64,000 nt of DNA from Bythopirellula sp. (lineage in GTDB: Bacteria; Planctomycetota; Planctomycetia; Pirellulales; Lacipirellulaceae). Shown here in pieces: positions 6,247-41,705 of this stretch (positions are counted from its first letter, which is position 1; each line of letters opens with the position of its first letter). Where the stretch lies: NCBI GenBank assembly GCA_034439695.1, contig JAWXAV010000047.1:248-64247 (forward strand). Reading direction: 5' to 3'. Below the pieces are notes generated by a model. The model was not told where the DNA came from and made no database searches. It saw only the letters and a program-made list of their open reading frames with translations. The position numbers and the translations under genes were made by a program.

Positions 6247-8547
6247 CTACAGCATATCCCACGGATCTACGTCCACCGCCAGAAACACCTTCTCGGGAAG
6301 TTTTAACTTGGCGGTGACGCGCTGCACTACCTCATGCAGTGGCGGCATGGTCTCCGCTTGCAATTGAATTTGAAACCGATAGTGATCCCGCAGCTTAGCA
6401 ATCGCTGCCACTGCGGGGCCCATCACGCGGACCCCCGTCAGCGCGGCAGCCGCTGCACGTAACTCGCCTGCCACTTGCTCGGCCACTGCGCGAGCCGTTT
6501 CCTCCGCCGGGCCGCGCACCACCAAGCGAATCATCGAACCATAGGGGGGGTAATGAAGCTGCTTACGAACTCCAAGTTCTTCTGTCGCAAACATTTCATA
6601 ATCGTGCCGCACGGCAGCGCGAATCGCCAAATGATCGGGGCTTAGTGTTTGCACCAACACCCGCCCCCCTTTTTCGCCGCGCCCGGTGCGCCCCGCCACT
6701 TGGGCCACCAATTGAAACGTTCGTTCCCCCGCGCGAAAGTCCGGCAAGTGCAACGCCGTGTCGGCGTTAATCACCCCCACCAGCGTCACGTTGGGAAAAT
6801 CCAAGCCTTTGGCGATCATCTGCGTGCCTAACAGGATATTCACCTTACCATGCCGAAAGGCGTCGAGCACCCTTTCATGGCTGCCACGAGTCTTCATGCT
6901 GTCGGTATCCATCCGCTCGCAAACGTAATCGGGAAATCTCGCGTTGACTTCGGCTTCCAACTTCTGCGTGCCGAGCCCACCAAAACGAATCGCCGTCGAC
7001 TTGCAGTCGGGACAACTCGACGGAGGTGCCAACTGGTAATCGCAGTAATGACAACGTGTGATACTCTCCTGTCGATGAAACGTGAGTGGCAATTCGCAGT
7101 GTGGGCACTTCGCCACAAACCCACACGCGGGGCACTGAATGTGCGTGGAAAAGCCTCGGCGGTTGAGCAACAGAATCACTTGCCCTTCATCACGCAGCGC
7201 CGCCACCATCGCTTGATGCAGCGGCCGGCTGATTGCCCCACGGCTCATGCGCGTATGGCCCGGATCTCGCAGATCAACTGTGATCACATTCGGTAACGGG
7301 CGATTCGACACGCGGCATGGCAAATCGAGCCGCGCAAACTCTCCTATCTCCGTTCGCTGCCAAGCTTCGAGCGACGGCGTGGCACTCCCCAACACGAGCG
7401 GAATTCGTTCAGCAATCGCCCGCTGCCAAGCCACGTCGCGGGCATGATAACGGGGCGTACTGTCCTGTTTGAACGACGATTCATGCTCTTCGTCGATCAC
7501 AATCAAACCCAAATGCGGCGTCGGCGCGAACACCGCACTCCGCGCACCCACCACCACCTGCACTTCACCTCGCGAAATTCGTTGCCATTCGCGGTGCCGC
7601 TCCACGTTTGTCTGATGGCTGTGCAGCACCGCCACGGCATCAAACCGCGCGCGAAACCGCCGCACGGTTTGCGGTGTTAAACTGATCTCCGGTACAAGCA
7701 CAATTGCCTGGCGGCCAAAGCCCACCACGGTCTCGATAGCTTGCAAGTACACTTCGGTCTTGCCACTGCCGGTGACGCCGTGCAACACCATTCCGTGGGG
7801 TTCAGGCTTATCCAATGCTATCTGAATCGCTTCGAGTGCCCGCTGCTGATCGATATTAAGAGTGAGCGGCGCTTCGCGTTCAAACACTTCCAATTCGGCA
7901 TCGCCGGAGTCCAATCGCTTTTCGCGACCCTCGATCAGTCCCTTCTTCAAGAGTTGCTTGATCGGCGCGGCGGTGCAATTGGTAGCCGTGGCAAGCTGAG
8001 CAATCGTGAGCGGCCGCGACGATTTTGCCAAATGCGTCAGGGCTTGTGCTTGCTTCGTGGCGAGTTTCAACGTCGCGAGCTTCTCGCGGACATCTTCCGG
8101 TACCGAGAGCAACACGACTTTCCGCGTGCCTGCCAGTTGCCGCACTCCTGCGGGAACGACCGCTTCGAGCACCTCGCCCCAATTGCACAGATAATAGTCG
8201 GCCATCCACCGCGTGAGCCGCAGCATCGCCGGCGAGAGCAGCGAGGTCGAGTCCACCACCTCGGCGACCGATTTTAATCGTCCAGGATCGACCCCTTTGG
8301 TTCCCAGCGCCACGCAATAGCCGACCACCTTGCGATTCGACCGACCAAACGGCACCCGCACGCGCCGGCCGACTTGGAGACAGCGATCATGTTCGTCGGC
8401 ATCACACAGAACGTTAGGTACCAAATAGTCGTATTCGCCCTTGGCCCCCTCGCCCAGCACCACCGACGCCACCAACCGTTGCTGCTGCGCATCGAGTTCC
8501 CAGGCGGCGGGTTCGTCGTCAAACAAACTCGATTGGCGGGTCGGCAT
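6247..8547 (-). CDS. priA: Primosomal protein N' (replication-restart helicase)
   Basis: GVTGSGKT, DEEH, GSATPS, four CxxC pairs (CPACG..CPHC..CHYC..CPDC), GTQMIAKGLDFP. Likely start ATG 8547 (MPTRQSSLF); the upstream part of the ORF-track ORF is repeat sequence. Confidence 0.95.
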   Translation of the reverse strand: MPTRQSSLFDDEPAAWELDAQQQRLVASVVLGEGAKGEYDYLVPNVLCDADEHDRCLQVGRRVRVPFGRSNRKVVGYCVALGTKGVDPGRLKSVAEVVDSTSLLSPAMLRLTRWMADYYLCNWGEVLEAVVPAGVRQLAGTRKVVLLSVPEDVREKLATLKLATKQAQALTHLAKSSRPLTIAQLATATNCTAAPIKQLLKKGLIEGREKRLDSGDAELEVFEREAPLTLNIDQQRALEAIQIALDKPEPHGMVLHGVTGSGKTEVYLQAIETVVGFGRQAIVLVPEISLTPQTVRRFRARFDAVAVLHSHQTNVERHREWQRISRGEVQVVVGARSAVFAPTPHLGLIVIDEEHESSFKQDSTPRYHARDVAWQRAIAERIPLVLGSATPSLEAWQRTEIGEFARLDLPCRVSNRPLPNVITVDLRDPGHTRMSRGAISRPLHQAMVAALRDEGQVILLLNRRGFSTHIQCPACGFVAKCPHCELPLTFHRQESITRCHYCDYQLAPPSSCPDCKSTAIRFGGLGTQKLEAEVNARFPDYVCERMDTDSMKTRGSHERVLDAFRHGKVNILLGTQMIAKGLDFPNVTLVGVINADTALHLPDFRAGERTFQLVAQVAGRTGRGEKGGRVLVQTLSPDHLAIRAAVRHDYEMFATEELGVRKQLHYPPYGSMIRLVVRGPAEETARAVAEQVAGELRAAAAALTGVRVMGPAVAAIAKLRDHYRFQIQLQAETMPPLHEVVQRVTAKLKLPEKVFLAVDVDPWDML

Positions 8548-24357: not shown

Positions 24358-26988
24358 ATGACGAAAAGTTCCCGCCTCAACGACACCTTGCAACAACTCC
24401 GCGAGGAATTGCAAACCCGCCGTGCTGAAATTCAAGCCAGCCACGAACGGGGGCTGCCCGGTGCCCAAGTCTCCGCCAAACTGGCCTCGCTGCTCGATAC
24501 CGTTCTCATGCGGCTGTTCGACGCCACCTTGGCCGAAACGTCCCCGGCCAAAGCCGACAAGCTCCGCGCCAATCTGGTCATCGTTTGCTTGGGAAGTTAC
24601 GGCCGTCGCCAATGTTCGCCTGACTCCGACGTCGATCTGATGTTCCTCTACAACAACATGCGCAGCGAAGAGGTCGCCGAAATCCTGCGACCGCTCACGC
24701 AAGGAGTTTTCGATATCGGCCTGCAGTTGGGCTCCAGCATCCGCAACCCCAGCGACGCCGTGCTATTGGCCCGCGGCGACGCCGTAATTTGCACGTCCTT
24801 GATTGATTCCCGACTACTGCTGGGCAACCAAACTCTGTTCGACGATTTTCGCAACAGCTTCGAGAAAATGGTTCGGCGCAATAGCAAAGCGCTCTGCCGT
24901 ACTTTCTTGGAAGCACGCACTCAGGAACGTGATCAGTACGGCGAAAGCGTTTATCTCCTCGAACCCCATGTGAAGCGATCGCGCGGCGGCTTGCGAGATA
25001 TCAACCTCTTGCGTTGGCTGGGATTTGCCGAGTTTGGCGCGGCCGATCCCGATCGCTTGCACCTGCTGGGAGCCATCTCGAAGTTCGATCACCATCGCCT
25101 GCAATCGGCCACCGAGTACCTGCTCCGCTTGCGCAATGAAATGCACTTTCACTCCGGTTCATCGACCGACATGCTCGACCGGGCCGAACAACTGCGCATC
25201 GCCGACTGGCTTGGCCTCCAGCAACGCAGCGGCTTGTTGCCGGTCGAGCAATTCATGCGGGATTACTTCCGCCATACGAACCACGTCTGGCAGTTGGTCC
25301 GCCGTCGGGAAGCGAGCTTGATCGCCACGAGCGCGGTGTCGCGCGTGTTGGAACCGATTTTTAGCCGCAGTGTCGGCGCGGATTTCCGTGTCACCCTGAA
25401 CAACGTCGGCGTGACGACCGCCGGCTTGGCCAAGATCAAACAAGATATGACCGCGGTCTTGCGGTTGGTGGAACTGGCAGCGGAGGAAAACAAACCGCTC
25501 GACCAACAAACGTATTCCGCGTTGCTCTTGGCTGCCCCCGATTTCCCCGACGAAGCCTCCGACGAAGTGCGCCGGCAGTTCTACGACCGGCTCGCCACGC
25601 CGCATACCGTGGGCCGCCTGTTGAGTTTGCTCCATGAATTGGGCTATTTGGAAAAGCTTGTCCCCGCGATGCGTCATGCCCGCTGTCTGCTCCAATTCAA
25701 TCAATATCACAAGTACACCGTCGACGAGCATACCTTGCTGGCGGTGAGCGAAGCCGCGGGGTTTGCCAAGCGTGACGATGCGCTGGGATATGCTTATCGT
25801 GAAATCGCCGACAAACGGATTCTTCATTTCGCGCTCTTGCTCCACGACTTGGGCAAGGGTTTTGAAGAAGATCACAGCGATGTCGGCAAACGCATCGCCG
25901 AAGAAACCACCAAACTCTTTCAGCTCGACGATCGCTCGTCCGATGATATTGCGTTCCTGGTTCACAAACATCTGACCATGTCGCACCTCACGTTTCGCCG
26001 CGATACGTCGGACATTCGTTTGCTGGAGGCATTCGCGCGCCAAGTGGGCACCGTCGATCGCTTGCGAATGCTTTTTGCGATGACCTGCGCGGACTTGGCC
26101 GCGGTGGGGCCTGACGTGCTCACCGATTGGAAACGCGACGTGCTGGCCGGCGTGTACTCTCGCACGGCTGGTTTCCAGCAAGACGATGATTCGACCGACT
26201 TTCGCGCCAAGCTGACCGCCAAAACTGCCGCCGTGCTCAAACAACTCACCCCCGCACAGCAAGCCGATGATTGGTACGTGCGGCAACTGGGGGCACTCCC
26301 GTCGAGTCACCTCATTAGTCTGGAAGCCACGGAAATTGTGGAAATCCTCGCGCGGCTCAAAGCCCTCCGCGAAAACGAACCGACCGCTTGGTGTGCCTTC
26401 CAAAAGTCTTCCAAAACTATCGTCTGTTCAGCGGGTATCAACCACGGCGTCGGCCGCGGCGTGTTTTCGAGCATGGCCGGCGCACTCAGTAGCGAGGGAT
26501 TGGAAATTCTCTCCGCTGACATCGACGTGTTGGCCGACGAACTGCTGCTCGTGCGCTACACGGTGAACGATCCTCAAACTTCCAAACCACCCACCAAGGA
26601 ACGACTCAAGGAGCTTTCGCAAAAAATGGTCGCCGCGATCGACTCTTCGAAGCCGCCCCAGTTTCGCCGCGTTTGGGGACAGGACCAGATCGAAGCTTCC
26701 CGCAAACTCACGCCGCAATTCACCGAGGTCCGCATCGACAACGATCTTTCCGAGGACTATACCATTGTCGAAGTCTTCACCTTCGACCGCCCGGGCTTGC
26801 TCTACGCGCTCGCGCGCAAACTTCACGACCTGGGTCTGGTGATCAGCCACGCCAAGATCGGCACCTACATCGATCAAGTGGTCGATGTCTTTTATGTGAC
26901 CGCCCGCGAAAACGGACAAAAAATCCACGACGAAGGTTATCAAAACCATATCAAGCACGAAATGTACCACGCCGCCGAAGCGAAATGA
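24358..26988 (+). CDS. glnD: [Protein-PII] uridylyltransferase / uridylyl-removing enzyme
   Basis: GSYGR..SPDSDVDL NTase motif, LEPHVKRSRGGLRD, YHKYTVDEH, LLHDLGKG (HD), C-terminal ACT (DRPGLL, KIGTYIDQVVDVFYV). Confidence 0.93.
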   Translation: MTKSSRLNDTLQQLREELQTRRAEIQASHERGLPGAQVSAKLASLLDTVLMRLFDATLAETSPAKADKLRANLVIVCLGSYGRRQCSPDSDVDLMFLYNNMRSEEVAEILRPLTQGVFDIGLQLGSSIRNPSDAVLLARGDAVICTSLIDSRLLLGNQTLFDDFRNSFEKMVRRNSKALCRTFLEARTQERDQYGESVYLLEPHVKRSRGGLRDINLLRWLGFAEFGAADPDRLHLLGAISKFDHHRLQSATEYLLRLRNEMHFHSGSSTDMLDRAEQLRIADWLGLQQRSGLLPVEQFMRDYFRHTNHVWQLVRRREASLIATSAVSRVLEPIFSRSVGADFRVTLNNVGVTTAGLAKIKQDMTAVLRLVELAAEENKPLDQQTYSALLLAAPDFPDEASDEVRRQFYDRLATPHTVGRLLSLLHELGYLEKLVPAMRHARCLLQFNQYHKYTVDEHTLLAVSEAAGFAKRDDALGYAYREIADKRILHFALLLHDLGKGFEEDHSDVGKRIAEETTKLFQLDDRSSDDIAFLVHKHLTMSHLTFRRDTSDIRLLEAFARQVGTVDRLRMLFAMTCADLAAVGPDVLTDWKRDVLAGVYSRTAGFQQDDDSTDFRAKLTAKTAAVLKQLTPAQQADDWYVRQLGALPSSHLISLEATEIVEILARLKALRENEPTAWCAFQKSSKTIVCSAGINHGVGRGVFSSMAGALSSEGLEILSADIDVLADELLLVRYTVNDPQTSKPPTKERLKELSQKMVAAIDSSKPPQFRRVWGQDQIEASRKLTPQFTEVRIDNDLSEDYTIVEVFTFDRPGLLYALARKLHDLGLVISHAKIGTYIDQVVDVFYVTARENGQKIHDEGYQNHIKHEMYHAAEAK

Positions 26989-27087
26989 TTCTTATTTGTC
27001 GCGAATCAAACGGCTTTTTGCAGTTCGTAGCTCACTCGGCCCGCGATGTTGTGCTAACCGTCCACAAGCTATCAAAAGGAAACCTTC

Positions 27088-27660
27088 ATGAAAGGCGCTA
27101 AAACAAAAAGGGTATTGTTGCCAGCGCAACGCGAAGAGCTGCTCGGCACGTTGCAGGCCCGCTTTGAGAAAAATGGGAATCGGCACAAAGGTTTCGACTG
27201 GACTAAAGTCCAAGTCAAGCTGGTAGCGAATCCTGACAAACTCTGGTCACTCTACGAAATGGAAAAAACGGGTGGTGAACCGGATGTTGTTGGTCATGAT
27301 AAAAAGGCGGGAGAATACATTTTCTTTGATTGTTCCGCGGAAAGTCCTCCAGGTCGCCGCAGCGTGTGTTACGACCGTGAAGGGCTGGAATCGAGGAAGG
27401 AACATCAACCAGAAAATACCGCGATTGATATGGCAACGGCCATGGGCATTGAGCTTTTGACGGAATTAGAATATCGAGAACTGCAGGAACTGGGAGAGTT
27501 CGACATAAAAACTTCGAGCTGGGTCGAAACACCTGCTGCGATTAGAAAGCTCGGTGGTGCGCTCTTTTGTGATCGCCGCTACGGCACGGTCTTCGTGTAT
27601 CACAACGGTGCCCAATCGTACTATGCCGCCAGAGCGTTCCGTGGCTCGCTCAGGGTCTAA
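27088..27660 (+). CDS. DUF4256-family protein
   Basis: RFEKN..RHKG..W, LYEMEKTGGEPDVV, DCSAESP.GRRSVCYD, KTSSW, FVYHNGAQSYYAARAFRG. Confidence 0.8.
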   Translation: MKGAKTKRVLLPAQREELLGTLQARFEKNGNRHKGFDWTKVQVKLVANPDKLWSLYEMEKTGGEPDVVGHDKKAGEYIFFDCSAESPPGRRSVCYDREGLESRKEHQPENTAIDMATAMGIELLTELEYRELQELGEFDIKTSSWVETPAAIRKLGGALFCDRRYGTVFVYHNGAQSYYAARAFRGSLRV

Positions 27661-27826
27661 ATTTTGCACGGATAGTCGGAGGACGACTTTTGTACTTTTT
27701 ACTGCCCGCTAAACACGCAAAATATCGCGAAAATGGGAAGATGTACACTGTTCGGTAGGAATGGGAACGTATTTCAGTAGAACAAGACAAGAGATGCTGC
27801 TCATGATTATCATCAATTCTCCTGCT

Positions 27827-27919
27827 TTCGCGCCGTTTCGCGTGATTCGCGGGCGATAAAACTGCAAAACTTGAGATGAGGACGCTGCGAAAAACCCGAG
27901 GCTAGCGCCTTGCGGCTAA
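27827..27919. repeat. Two stacked repeat remnants (TTCGCG tandem half-element; TTAGCC-hairpin REP on minus strand)
   Basis: ttcgcgccgtttcgcgtgattcgcgggc and aaacccgaggctagcgccttgcggctaa. Confidence 0.6.
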
Positions 27920-28009
27920 TTCAATCAGTCGCCGGATACATTCTGAGTGGATAGCGTCCGGTTCTCGCATGTGATTTTGAAACCAGCCTAACTCAATATA
28001 TGGCTGATG

Positions 28010-28586
28010 CCCCCTCACGCATTCAGGAAGCGGCGCAGATATTTCTGCCGGAACTGCGTATCCGCCGCGGCGGATTCCGGCCTACGTTCTCAAATTGTCG
28101 CAATCGGCGGCCGACCTTTACCTTGAAATCTCGATTGTTATCTGCCACTCTTCAAGGTGATAGTTAGAGATGCTCCGCCGTTTACGCCATTTATCGCATC
28201 TTTATTCGACGAAACAAAATCCTGGTAACAATCTAGTATGCCCATTCGTTCTCATGACATTATTTAGCGAACTCTGCTAGGTCAGGATGAATCAGAATGG
28301 GCACAAACTGTTGTCGATTGCTCAGCCGCCTTTCCTCCCATGCTTCGACGTCGGAAACTCGGGCGTATCGAATGCGGCCGCGTTGCTCATAGGGTAGTTC
28401 GCCGGAGAGCATCGCGGCCAAGACCGTTTCGCGACGCATTCGTTGTTGCTTGCGGATGGCATCAACAGTCAACCAGCGAATCGGCTGAAGTGGATTGTTT
28501 AGCCGAGCCATGGTATTTCCTCTCCTCAAATAAGGCCACGAAACTTCACACAGTTTGTAGAGCGTAGTTCCCCCTCACGCATTCAG
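28010..28586. mobile_element. Putative minimal integrated islet bounded by a 17-bp direct repeat (att-like)
   Basis: CCCCCTCACGCATTCAG is identical at 28010-28026 and 28570-28586; the second copy contains the last codons and stop of the DUF3500 gene. Confidence 0.6.
28260..28511 (-). CDS. Excisionase-like / HTH_17-type small DNA-binding protein
   Basis: GAGGAGA RBS, ATG 28511; WLTVDAIRKQQRMRRETVLAAMLSGELPYEQRGRIRYARVSDVEAW follows the Xis/MerR-like LT...G.LP...G....DV..W pattern. Confidence 0.65.
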   Translation of the reverse strand: MARLNNPLQPIRWLTVDAIRKQQRMRRETVLAAMLSGELPYEQRGRIRYARVSDVEAWEERRLSNRQQFVPILIHPDLAEFAK

Positions 28587-29636
28587 CTTCACGCTCGCGC
28601 TATCCGACACGTTGACCCACACGTGTACATGGGGCGAACCGCGGAAGTGCCAGACGAATGACGGCCCTTCGAGCCGCCAGTTGTCCCACGTCTTGTCCTT
28701 GCCGATATCGCCCTGCTCGTAGAATGCCAAGTGGCAGGCATCAAGGCCCCCTTGCGCGTTGAGGGCGGCGATTGCTTCGTCGCGGTCGTTTTGCCGATAG
28801 GGCTCGACCAATTTTTTGAGCACTTCTTGCACTCGGGTCCGCTGATCGCTCGTGAGCTCGGTGAGGGGAATGCCCTGAAACTGGCCGCTCTCGCCTTGGA
28901 AACCAACTTTTTCTTCGCGTGGCATACCCCGCCTGACGAGAGCCAGTTGTTGCTGCTTGCCATCGAGGGCTTGGTACAGCTTGTTCGCCTCGACGGCTTG
29001 GGGCCAGAAGACATTCCCCGGATGGTGCGCTTCTTCATCAAAACCCTCGCCGGAGTGGCCGTAGAAAATCGGCCCGCCGAACGCGACGTGGTCCGTCGTG
29101 TTGCCGTCGCAGCGCACGGTCATGTGCCGGCCGGTCATCACGAATTCAAAATGCTCGCTTCCCGGCTCGCCAAAGATCGCGACGCTGTTCTGCTCGCCAA
29201 AGCCGCCGGAATCATCCGACAGTTGCTGGTCGATTTTTGCATGCCATTCGGGACTGTAAAGATTCTCAAACACCGCGCGAATGAGAGCGCGTTGGTCGCC
29301 GGTATAAAAATCGTCGTTCACATAGTAATCGGTGATGTCCCAATTGTTGGCAACCCGCGTGCGCAGCAGCCCGCGCTTGGCATCTTGGTGATCCCAGGCA
29401 AAGCAAATTTTCTCGCGCTGGCCGGGGGTGAGCGCTTCGTAGAGCAGCTTCACCAGCGATTCCGCCGACTGGATGGCAGGTAAGGCGGCTGTTTGCTCCG
29501 CCGCACGCAGCGAAAACGGTGTGCTCGCGACGGCCAAGCCCGAAGCCAAGAGCGACACGCCGGTCTGCTCCAAAAAATTCCGCCGATTGATGCTCGTCAA
29601 CGAAAAATCTTCGCAACAACGTCCCCAAGGATCCAT
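28575..29636 (-). CDS. Tat-exported DUF3500-family protein
   Basis: NRRNFL twin-arginine signal; LTPGQREK, GRHMTVRCD, WRLEGPSFVWHFRGSPHVH. Start may be TTG 29600. Confidence 0.75.
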   Translation of the reverse strand: MDPWGRCCEDFSLTSINRRNFLEQTGVSLLASGLAVASTPFSLRAAEQTAALPAIQSAESLVKLLYEALTPGQREKICFAWDHQDAKRGLLRTRVANNWDITDYYVNDDFYTGDQRALIRAVFENLYSPEWHAKIDQQLSDDSGGFGEQNSVAIFGEPGSEHFEFVMTGRHMTVRCDGNTTDHVAFGGPIFYGHSGEGFDEEAHHPGNVFWPQAVEANKLYQALDGKQQQLALVRRGMPREEKVGFQGESGQFQGIPLTELTSDQRTRVQEVLKKLVEPYRQNDRDEAIAALNAQGGLDACHLAFYEQGDIGKDKTWDNWRLEGPSFVWHFRGSPHVHVWVNVSDSASVKLNA

Positions 29637-29918
29637 CGCTCACCTCCCACTGCATTTGGAAATGTTAAATCCGACCACCGCAATGGAAATTAGACCAAAA
29701 CCACCGCTTCTTCGCAAATTCTTGATAAAAGCTCGCCTGAATCGCAGCGTGCAAGTTGCGTGCTTGTTTTCTCTCGTAAAAGGCCGAATTGCCTCTCCTC
29801 ATCAGACCTATTCACTACAAGCCGAACTCCAACCGAGATTTTGGCGACAGCCGCCCGCGATCAAGAAGATATTCTAAACTTGACCATAGGCTCATTACCC
29901 CGGCCGTATCCAATCTTC

Positions 29919-30914
29919 ATGGCGTCCACGCATACACCATCCTCGGCAGACAAACTCCCTGAATGTTCAGGCGAGTTCACCTGCATACCGCTATCGGTAT
30001 TCCGCGTTCAGCGGACCGTGGAAGTCAGCCTCTATTGTCAACTCGAGAGCGCAGCCACTCCGGTCCTTTATCGCAGTGCCGCGATCCCCATCACCGACGC
30101 CGACGTCGAAGGCCTCAAGAACCGTGGCCATCGCGCGCTGTATGTCGCCTCGACCGATTTCGCGGCCTTCGGCAATTCGTTGTCAGCATCATTGCACGAC
30201 GCACTCGTTGACGAATCCATCGCCGCCGAAGAGCGCTTCTCGTTCTTGCAATCGGTGATGGCGGTGGAAGTCAACGCGGCCTTTAACATGATTAAGTGTG
30301 ACCGCTTCGTAAGCCTCGCGCAAAGCTTATCCAAACAAATTGCCAAGCTGCTCGAGCGGAACACCGTTGTCCCCCGCAAACTGTTCGCGATGGTGCAGCA
30401 CGATTTCTACACCTTCACGCATGTGACCAACGTCGCGGGCTTTGCCACGTTGCTCGCTGAGAAACTCGGTTACACCGACCCAACGATCAAGGAACAGATC
30501 ACTGTCGGCGCGCTGCTGCACGACATCGGCAAACGATTCATCCCCGCGGCCTTGCTCGGCAAAAAAGGAGCGCTCACCGAGTCGGAATGGGCTCTTATTA
30601 AAACTCACCCCCAGCGCGGCTACGAAGATTTATGTGATCGCCAGGACTTGAACGAAGCGCAATTGCTGATGGTTTACTCGCATCATGAACGCATGGATGG
30701 CCAAGGCTATCCCGTGGGCATGGTCGGCGAGGAGATTCATCCTTGGGCCAGGCTGTTGGCAGTGGTTGACGTGTTCGACGCGATCACCAGCGCTCGCCCC
30801 TATCGCACCCCAAAAAAACTGAGCGAAGGCTTGGATTATCTCGAACGCCAGGCAGGCACCCATTTTGAAAGCGAGTTGGTCCGATGTTGGATCTCGGCAA
30901 TGAAAGAGTATTAA
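29919..30914 (+). CDS. HD-GYP c-di-GMP phosphodiesterase with N-terminal accessory region
   Basis: YTFTHVTNV, LLHDIGK, IKTHPQRG, HHERMDGQGYP, AVVDVFDAITSARPY. Start ATG 29919. Confidence 0.9.
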   Translation: MASTHTPSSADKLPECSGEFTCIPLSVFRVQRTVEVSLYCQLESAATPVLYRSAAIPITDADVEGLKNRGHRALYVASTDFAAFGNSLSASLHDALVDESIAAEERFSFLQSVMAVEVNAAFNMIKCDRFVSLAQSLSKQIAKLLERNTVVPRKLFAMVQHDFYTFTHVTNVAGFATLLAEKLGYTDPTIKEQITVGALLHDIGKRFIPAALLGKKGALTESEWALIKTHPQRGYEDLCDRQDLNEAQLLMVYSHHERMDGQGYPVGMVGEEIHPWARLLAVVDVFDAITSARPYRTPKKLSEGLDYLERQAGTHFESELVRCWISAMKEY

Positions 30915-39880: not shown

Positions 39881-39934
39881 TCACGTCACCAACCCCTTCG
39901 TGACCATCATAAACACATCTTCGAACGTTGGTTT
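39881..39934 (-). pseudogene. Displaced duplicate of the last ~17 codons of the ABC ATPase gene
   Basis: Encodes KPTFEDVFMMVTKGLVT* versus EPTLEDVFMMVTKGLVT* at 40779-40832; 21 bp identical at the stop end. Confidence 0.85.
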
Positions 39935-40778: not shown

Positions 40779-41705
40779 TCACGTCACCAACCCCTTCGTC
40801 ACCATCATAAACACGTCCTCCAGCGTCGGCTCTTTTTCGGCGAAGGAAATCAGCCCGCAATCGGCGGCGGCCAACTGACGCATCAAGCGCTGCACGTCGG
40901 CGTCGGAGCCTTTCATTTCCACCGTGCAACTCCGTGTGTTCACTTCAATGTGCTTCACGTTGGGATCACTCTTGACAAGTCCGACTCCCGCGTCGGGATT
41001 CCCCGTGAAGCGGATTTCGATATGCCGATTGGTCGTGATCTTGCGATAGACTTTATCAATCGGACCGTGCAGCAACAGTTGCCCCCGCTCGATAATGCCG
41101 ATGCTCGTGCAGCAATCGGCCAGCTCCGTGAGAATATGACTGGAAATGAGAATCGTCTTGCCCATCTTGCGCAGTTCTTTGAGCAAAACCTTCACTTCCA
41201 ACCGCGCGCGGGGGTCGAGCCCACTGGCCGGTTCGTCGAGAATGAGTACCGGCGGATCGTGAACCAACGTTTTCGCGAGGCACAATCGCTGCTTCATGCC
41301 GCGGGACAAACCATTCACGTAATCATCTCGCTTGTGCGTGAGGTCCAACAATTCCAGTACGTCAGTGAGCACCTGCTTCCGCCGTGCGGCGGGCACCTGG
41401 TACGCCACGGCAAAAAAATCCAAGAACTCCCACACTTTCATGCCGTCGTACACGCCGAAATTGTCGGGCATGTAGCCGATACTCCGCCGGACGGCAATCG
41501 GATCGCGCGTGACGCTGTGTCCATTCACGAGCGCCTCGCCGTGCGTCGCCTTGAGCAGCGTGGCCAGAAAGCGAATCGTCGTGCTCTTGCCGGCCCCGTT
41601 GGGCCCGATAAAGCCAAACATCTCTCCCGCGGGAATCTTGAGATTCAAATTCTGCACGGCCACAAAGTCGCCATAGTGCTTGCCAAAGTTGGTAATTTCG
41701 ATCAT
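40779..41705 (-). CDS. ABC transporter ATP-binding protein (ABC-2/DrrA type)
   Basis: GPNGAGKST, LSRGMKQR, LILDEPASGLD, ILISSH. Confidence 0.93.
   Translation of the reverse strand: MIEITNFGKHYGDFVAVQNLNLKIPAGEMFGFIGPNGAGKSTTIRFLATLLKATHGEALVNGHSVTRDPIAVRRSIGYMPDNFGVYDGMKVWEFLDFFAVAYQVPAARRKQVLTDVLELLDLTHKRDDYVNGLSRGMKQRLCLAKTLVHDPPVLILDEPASGLDPRARLEVKVLLKELRKMGKTILISSHILTELADCCTSIGIIERGQLLLHGPIDKVYRKITTNRHIEIRFTGNPDAGVGLVKSDPNVKHIEVNTRSCTVEMKGSDADVQRLMRQLAAADCGLISFAEKEPTLEDVFMMVTKGLVT

Follow-up and report, generated by a model that had tools for sequence, protein, structure and literature searches.

Does a short stretch of planctomycete DNA lying between two exact copies of a gene's 3' end represent a minimal mobile element, or the remains of something older? 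The question is raised by a locus in a 64,000-nucleotide stretch of a Bythopirellula sp. genome (assembly GCA_034439695.1, contig JAWXAV010000047.1, positions 248 to 64,247; here denoted the window, whose own numbering is used throughout). The 17-mer CCCCCTCACGCATTCAG occurs there twice on the plus strand, at 28010-28026 and 28570-28586, and the DNA in between encodes a small protein resembling helix-turn-helix (HTH) proteins of the HTH_17/excisionase type. No third copy was found, even with one mismatch, in the 4.77-Mb, 204-contig assembly. The right copy is composed of 5 nt downstream of a DUF3500 gene, the TGA stop codon of this gene (28575-28577) and its last three codons (L-N-A). An earlier note, made from the letters of the window, had described both copies and the composition of the second one correctly, and had read the pair as the attachment sites (attL and attR) of a 560-bp islet without integrase. 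The comparative data show that what lies between the copies is left over, after erosion, from a genomic-island module of two genes, and is not a fresh mini-element. The best overall explanation, which we hold at about even confidence, is an old island stump to which the repeat was added later by recombination.

The interval between the two copies holds more than the lone open reading frame (ORF) that the note had listed. The ORF (28260-28511, minus strand) is intact and encodes 83 amino acids, and GAGGAGAGG precedes its ATG by 7-15 nt; public gene predictions agree on 83 amino acids. As stated before, it is the only intact ORF with a ribosome-binding site between the 17-mers, and there is no integrase gene between them. 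In addition, we identified a G+C-rich palindrome resembling repetitive extragenic palindromic (REP) elements (28046-28086), a 39-nt motif (28120-28158, plus strand) and the remnant of a gene encoding an AAA_14/DUF4143 ATPase (28170-28229, plus strand). Comparison with the intact 385-amino-acid gene of two related loci, R3 and L102, showed that the 19 codons of the remnant are approximately the first 8 and the last 11 of that gene, joined without a frameshift where TTATC provides a microhomology, with the loss of ~1.1 kb. The motif, ACCTTGAA-N23-TTCAAGGT, is an inverted repeat located directly upstream of the former ATPase start, and its right arm overlaps a Shine-Dalgarno-like AAGGTGA, the ribosome-binding site of the ATPase. 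The order and orientation of motif, fused ATPase ends and HTH gene are those of the intact module, which we define here, from islands of the Pirellulales, as an ATPase gene preceded by the ACCTTGAA...TTCAAGGT motif and an HTH gene convergent with it. The module is intact in R3 and L102; G081, a genome of another genus, has one extra gene between the ATPase and HTH genes.

Examination of the same locus in relatives showed that the gene order GlnD(+) ... DUF3500(-) HD(+) is syntenic genus-wide. The conserved left anchor of the variable interval is a GlnD-type PII uridylyltransferase gene (24358-26988, plus strand, assigned by Pfam), and the right anchor is the DUF3500 gene (28575-29636, minus strand; Pfam E=1.4e-17), with orthologues in 33 of 41 related genomes. 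Three lineages closer to the window than the reference genomes, L098, R3 and G023, were found via exact-protein and homologue look-ups; R3 consists of contigs L100 and L101, which overlap by 476/476 positions. The order in L098 is GlnD, 75 nt, motif, deleted ATPase, HTH gene, an identical right 17-mer and DUF3500; it is collinear with the window over 28095-30500, with 89% identity over 2.4 kb and 92% over the last 800 nt of DUF3500. R3 carries GlnD, ~105 nt, motif, the intact ATPase gene (+), HTH gene (-), 155 nt and DUF3500. G023 retains a 199-bp remnant homologous to 28098-28339, from which most of the HTH gene is lost. The ATPase deletion junction is common to the window and L098, where the remnant ORF has an internal stop codon. 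The DUF3500 tree is (G011,(R3,G023,(window,L098))). Since the module is present at this locus in the window, L098, R3 and G023, it predates the split of these lineages; it entered the GlnD/DUF3500 interval in a common ancestor of at least four species, and the in-frame deletion in the ATPase gene came later. That the module is old and resident is thus very probable.

Homologues of the module were found in integrase islands elsewhere. In G081, a 33-kb island lies between exact 23-nt copies of the tmRNA 3' end (C1:4546944 and 4580001; L124/L125), with the order tmRNA, tyrosine integrase, 39-nt motif, ATPase, a 311-amino-acid gene and HTH gene; the HTH gene is 2.7 kb from the integrase, with two genes in between. 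This island also encodes a ClpN-domain protein and a DUF932 protein, and its 311-amino-acid protein is common to islands L054 and L102. The ATPase, motif and HTH gene of the window are thus homologous to the integrase-proximal part of a tmRNA-integrated tyrosine-integrase island. Unlike such tmRNA/tRNA islands, the window keeps ~0.5 kb, has neither integrase nor RNA-gene target and sits between protein genes. In L102 the HTH gene and ATPase pair adjoins a canonical HTH_17 gene and an integrase, and it is this other HTH_17 gene that lies immediately upstream of the integrase. The earlier view of a collapsed element therefore stands in so far as the DNA is the remnant of an island module that has lost its ATPase; the claim that what is left is the directionality factor is doubtful. 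Other homologues of the HTH gene were found beside insertion sequence (IS) elements, type I restriction-modification genes, phage tail genes, ArdC, AAA_25 and DUF932; many have no nearby integrase, and in L119 and L120 separate HTH_17 genes lie near the window-type HTH gene, with no integrase gene called.

To what, then, does the left 17-mer belong? The comparison with L098 and R3 speaks against attachment sites of a 560-bp islet. In both, the module abuts DUF3500 and there is no left copy (best match 9/17): the same arrangement without the repeat, which the earlier note itself had named as evidence that would count against it. In neither locus is the local DUF3500 end repeated exactly over 8-9 nt or a longer stretch. 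We considered AACC(G)CTCTTG in L098 and R3 as a decayed attL and rejected it, as the best ungapped matches (9/17) are at the level of shuffled sequence (p=0.75-0.94). An empty site with a single 17-mer, which the note had proposed to look for, was not found in relatives: the 40-bp interval of G012 has neither the module nor the filler that holds the left copy in the window, and no relative has this filler abutting DUF3500. Population data point the same way, with 11 contigs from a range of samples that encode identical proteins and are 99.96-100% identical to the window over the stretch that each covers; none of these 11 has an empty site or another context, assemblies being prone to drop rare variants.

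The left copy lies outside the module common to the relatives, in 55 nt of unique DNA flanked by a repeat resembling a miniature inverted-repeat transposable element (MITE) and by the REP-like palindrome. These are part of a 1.1-kb filler (26996-28086) that is restricted to the window lineage, where it stands in place of the 75-105 nt between GlnD and the module in L098 and R3. Homology to L098 ends at 26995 and restarts at 28095, that to R3 restarts at 28087 and that to G023 runs from ~28098. Cargo of the filler is a DUF4256 gene (27088-27660, plus strand; Pfam E=1.2e-89), which in the relatives G006, G007 and G011 is found at other loci; L098 has neither DUF4256 nor the left 17-mer at this locus. 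Three kinds of dispersed repeat are crowded into 400 nt of the non-coding part: one shared with contig C94 (27684-27874), the ~100-nt MITE-like repeat (27890-27990; ~20 or more copies by blastn against the own genome) and the palindrome, which has the form GCCGGAA...TTCCGGCCTACG and matches C27:11242-11282, elsewhere in this genome, at 40/41 positions. The G023 interval also contains palindromes with these ends. The non-coding part of the filler has no homology, except short repeats, to the DUF4256 flanks of relatives. We also observed an imperfect direct repeat, TTGTCGCGAATC / TTGTCGC-AATC, at both filler junctions (26998-27009 and 28094-28105). As a separate observation, the DUF4256 protein is 77-88% identical to proteins of Thermoanaerobaculia, Verrucomicrobiae, Blastocatellia, Anaerolineales, Paenibacillus and an archaeon, and at least 8000 homologues were found at E<=1e-60, a degree of conservation between phyla that is unusual for a protein without a known function.

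The age of the repeat can be compared with that of the module. The right copy, native to DUF3500 as its 3' end, is the same in L098, whereas the R3 version, TCCGCTTACGCATTCAG, departs from the left 17-mer at three positions. Between the window and L098, the two flanking genes together show differences at 75 of 289 four-fold degenerate sites (26%). The repeat appears to be much younger than the module, and not the attachment-site scar of the module's arrival, because the left copy matches the window/L098-specific DUF3500 end at 17/17 positions while four-fold sites of the flanks differ by 26%. As the module predates the window/L098 split and the repeat is exact and evidently young, the pair cannot be the scar of module integration. 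The two copies are identical over 17 nt and no further, and the sequences around them are unrelated (21% identity over +/-40 nt). The right boundary of the repeat agrees within 2 nt with that of the inserted DNA measured against R3, where homology on the DUF3500 side starts at 28568. On the left, the shared module starts at 28087-28100, 60-73 nt inside the repeat, or 19 nt inside if the palindrome is taken as a later insertion.

To place the 17-mer pair in the context of the genome, we counted direct repeats in which the proximal copy lies over a stop codon and the distal copy downstream, with displaced stop codons as control. This analysis detected 15 such gene-end repeats in the whole genome, versus a mean of 4.6 with displaced stops. 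The long class (at least 30 nt) numbered 11, compared with 2.95 +/- 1.84, and the short class (15-22 nt) numbered 4, compared with 0.84 +/- 0.98, and none of the 56 controls reached 4. The 11 long cases (C27:9890/11482, C45:4761/5437, C57:6828/8637, C61:20807/21658, C74:63019/64285, C85:2141/3025, C99:31296/32107, C126:2416/3087, C172:17021/18735, C180:23717/25002 and, in the window, 39881/40779) consist of 32-108 nt of a gene end and a 77-96% identical copy, with 0.6-1.8 kb of integrase-less cargo in between. The cargo comprises MazEF, PIN with an AF2212-like partner, HepT, DUF4258 with a zinc-finger-like partner, a PIN-like protein, three PEP-CTERM proteins, an ankyrin protein and a membrane protein, and is toxin-antitoxin or toxin-like in five of the 11. 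In the window case, the duplicated end of an ABC-ATPase gene (39881-39934 and 40779-40832) surrounds a gene for a 246-amino-acid membrane protein. This is a real insertion: the site is empty in G011, G008, G013 and G024, in which the gene of the 143-amino-acid neighbour lies directly adjacent. The insertion is common to G023, where the second copy is 103 nt. Exact blocks within the long repeats lie at varying places, with no fixed core, which argues for homology with a related donor rather than the core of a site-specific recombinase. The 17-mer pair fits this geometry at its short extreme. A literature search on toxin-antitoxin modules with gene-end duplications retrieved only a different case, a 152-bp intergenic repeat in Microcystis (PMC7935541).

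For the origin of the repeat we favor, at somewhat under even confidence, a scar left when the locus later recombined, guided by homology, with DNA from a related strain. In one form, the filler would have been imported together with the tail of a donor DUF3500 end; in another, the repeat would have arisen by insertion-duplication. The same process would have left the 11 longer and diverged gene-end duplications around integrase-less cargo. Recombination of this kind resembles insertion-duplication and homology-facilitated illegitimate recombination, described for foreign DNA (PMC3240628) and for pneumococcus merodiploids (PMC3784515), in that accessory DNA is inserted independently of an integrase beside a homologous anchor and could leave a second anchor end. 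It differs from them in that they are not known from Planctomycetes, 17 nt is a very short anchor, and their typical outcome is deletion, not duplication.

Several observations weigh against the explanation by an old stump with a repeat added later. Once the palindrome is set aside, the DNA between the repeats is approximately the shared module, the slack being 19 nt at the left end and, measured against R3, 0-2 nt at the right end. The polarity of the changes is given by parsimony and by a weak left-flank homology between L098 and R3 (p about 0.02), and the window state could be ancestral if variable fillers were swapped between strains. We found no donor genome with DUF4256 beside DUF3500, nor an empty DUF4256-DUF3500 site, among the DUF4256 relatives, the nearest contexts (P0122 and P0124) being unrelated loci. 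A length of 17 nt is short for RecA-dependent recombination. Moreover, module and spacer (28095-28569) are 5-10% diverged from L098, compared with 26% at the flanking four-fold sites; the differences number 10/166 in non-coding DNA (p=4e-8), 2/37 at four-fold sites of the HTH gene (p=0.004) and 6/58 in the spacer (p=0.01). Coding constraint does not account for this low divergence, because in L098 a stop codon interrupts the remnant ORF; it suggests a recent exchange, transfer or conversion of the unit. Finally, the regulatory role that we assign to the HTH protein below is a prediction.

The alternative that survives best is coincidence, the left 17-mer being a chance match within a filler rich in repeats and having no mechanistic link to the DUF3500 end; we regard this as quite possible, though not probable. 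Dinucleotide shuffles seem to argue against it, as none of 100 reproduced the repeat and 0.01 matches are expected. This test overstates how far the repeat exceeds chance. Chance is less remote than the shuffles imply because the genome is rich in isolated direct repeats: those not more than 1 kb apart include 6 of 17 nt, versus 0.15 expected under uniform composition, and 38 of at least 17 nt, so that both classes are 10-40 times the uniform expectation. The sharp end of the identity at 17 nt within random flanks, the ~0.84 short repeats of this geometry that a genome should contain by chance, the very many windows screened at the first stage and the absence of the left copy in relatives all favor coincidence. 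Against it stand the excess of short repeats at true stop codons, a number that no control reached, and a topology like that of the insertion that was verified at another place in the window (39881/40779).

We consider it unlikely that the gene-end duplications reflect a lineage-wide placing of small cassettes behind resident genes, integrase-independent or in trans, by which the 560-bp unit, less diverged from the sister species than its flanks, would recently have been re-inserted, with the 17-mers as true junctions. Such placing would duplicate the last 15-110 nt of the host gene, and its cargo would comprise toxin-antitoxin pairs, PEP-CTERM genes and the HTH stump. Still more doubtful is a reading close to that of the earlier note, in which the 560-bp unit, itself without an integrase, integrated or re-integrated recently behind DUF3500 and the 17-mers are its recombination junctions, whether as a cassette moved by an integrase acting in trans, in the manner of cis-mobilizable elements (CIMEs), or as a circularized fragment inserted by a single crossover. 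This would account for a repeat that is exact, unique in the genome and of a gene-end geometry enriched genome-wide; the tract of low divergence from L098 nearly fills the space between the copies, the homology to R3 on the DUF3500 side begins at 28568, and relatives of the unit reside in integrase islands. However, both sisters with complete flanks, L098 and R3, are without the left copy, and the module would have to be lost and then regained at the same site in the window lineage. The 17-mer is absent from the contigs with integrase homologues (C132, C141 and C64) and from all other contigs of the genome, and its 25 exact matches in 596 Gb of reference genomes are about the chance number and all in unrelated taxa. 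The population assemblies are invariant, with no empty site, and the long gene-end duplications have no fixed core position.

The locus does resemble CIMEs, such as those of the ICESt1/ICESt3 family, which in Streptococcus thermophilus occupy the 3' end of fda, in being a short, integrase-less, island-derived stretch at the 3' end of a protein gene with a direct repeat that includes the gene end. In CIMEs the repeats are att sites shared with a cognate element, and relatives have empty or occupied sites. A catalogue of CIMEs is given in ICEberg 2.0 (PMC6323972). At the present locus the relatives carry the stump without the repeat, and no element with this 17-mer was found in the genome or in the 596 Gb of reference genomes. 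Least probable of all is that left copy, module and right copy are ancestral and that L098, R3 and G023 each lost the left site by segment replacement. In favor of this, the GlnD-to-module segment differs in every lineage and ends on its right within 13 nt in all four (28087-28100), the pattern expected from swapping between two conserved anchors, and the left-flank homology of L098 and R3 reaches only p about 0.02, but an attL of the module's age would be expected to have drifted like the four-fold sites (26%), yet matches at 17/17 positions including the three at which R3 differs, and DUF4256 is at other loci in outgroups.

To learn about the protein encoded by the stump, we compared the HTH gene product with known families. 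Pfam HTH_17 (PF12728) covers it over the full 51-position profile with a score of 19 bits (E=0.0018), versus a gathering score of 27, and PHROG excisionase families match at E=0.008-0.025; the HTH_17-like character noted earlier thus holds along the whole profile, at a score below the cut-off. At least 288 homologues were found, with 15 invariant residues, named 'hypothetical protein' or, in one case, given an evidently wrong name. Two carry an organism name, from metagenome-assembled genomes (MAGs) of Planctomycetales and Lacipirellulaceae. HTH_17 matches at E<=0.01 were obtained for 32 of 55 family members (best 3.4e-5), none shown at the gathering score. Its distribution is sporadic: among 301 genomes from the order, 14 contain the gene, and none has more than one copy. 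An AlphaFold2 (AF2) model built from the 55-sequence alignment (pLDDT 76, pTM 0.47) is all-helical with no strands, a point that bears on the winged-HTH fold the earlier note had asked about. A Foldseek search of the PDB with this model gave no match at E<=0.001, and a profile search of PDB sequences gave nothing significant; alignment of the profile with the canonical HTH_17 protein of L102 has the right register, at negligible probability. The ratio of nonsynonymous to synonymous substitution rates (dN/dS) is 0.36-0.49, from 13-43 differences. We rejected it as a proof of retention, for which the note had proposed it, since the differences are few and the dS of the HTH gene is consistently below that of DUF3500; the value is not decisive.

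The assignment as an excisionase (Xis) is therefore weak. The protein resembles HTH_17/excisionase proteins (Xis, AlpA-type, PF12728) in size, in the register of conserved residues over the 51-position profile and in its association with mobile elements. Unlike them, it falls below the Pfam cut-off, its predicted model lacks a beta wing, and the window-type protein pairs with an AAA_14/DUF4143 ATPase, whereas L102 has a separate canonical HTH_17 gene beside the integrase. More likely than an excisionase, judging from this context, is a transcription regulator of the island, now orphaned. The 39-nt motif is identical in L098 and near-identical in G023, L102 and G081 (window 28120-28158; L050 5731-5769; L102, reverse-complemented, about 6757-6800), and R3 keeps the arms with a longer spacer between them; the motif is kept across genera, its surroundings are not. 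Because of this conservation in changing surroundings, and because its right arm lies over the ribosome-binding site of the ATPase, the motif may be a control element of the module, and the HTH protein, possibly acting on ACCTTGAA/TTCAAGGT, may be its regulator. The motif could be an operator or a hairpin occluding the ribosome-binding site; it belongs to no Rfam family, and a search of Rfam over 26900-28700 gave no match at E<=1. The stop of DUF3500 and the start of the HTH gene are 63 nt apart (28512-28574). This spacer has no homology to its 155-nt counterpart in R3, and a terminator scan found no terminator-like site in it; read-through from DUF3500 into the HTH gene is therefore possible, and the regulator would then be expressed in this way.

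Throughout the genus, the interval that separates the convergent genes for GlnD and DUF3500 is variable. It spans 40 bp in G012 and 1.3-7 kb in six other species, with unrelated content, including beta-lactamase-like, PEP-CTERM, GH16-like, HNH-like, LemA-like and other genes. In G013 (L027, oriented interval 46-127 / 2540-2621), an 82-nt, 85% identical copy of the 3' coding end of GlnD lies 2.4 kb downstream and flanks a PEP-CTERM gene of 713 amino acids. In G023 (L029, oriented interval 1896-2013 / 2213-2330), a 118-nt, 80% identical duplicate of the 3' end of a PEP-CTERM gene surrounds the 199-bp remnant. A second att pair, or tandem PEP-CTERM paralogues followed by deletions, would fit this 118-bp repeat equally well.

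What was expected to be a minimal integrase-less mobile unit is, on the comparative data, an ordinary decayed island remnant. Of value beyond it is a 288-member, essentially unannotated HTH_17-like family tied to islands of the Pirellulales, together with an AAA_14/DUF4143 ATPase and an inverted-repeat motif. So is a hypervariable hotspot between convergent glnD-type and DUF3500 genes, which ranges from 40 bp to 7 kb within one genus. The more interesting lead is the set of gene-end duplications around toxin-antitoxin and other cargo, which may mark a route by which such genes spread within the lineage.

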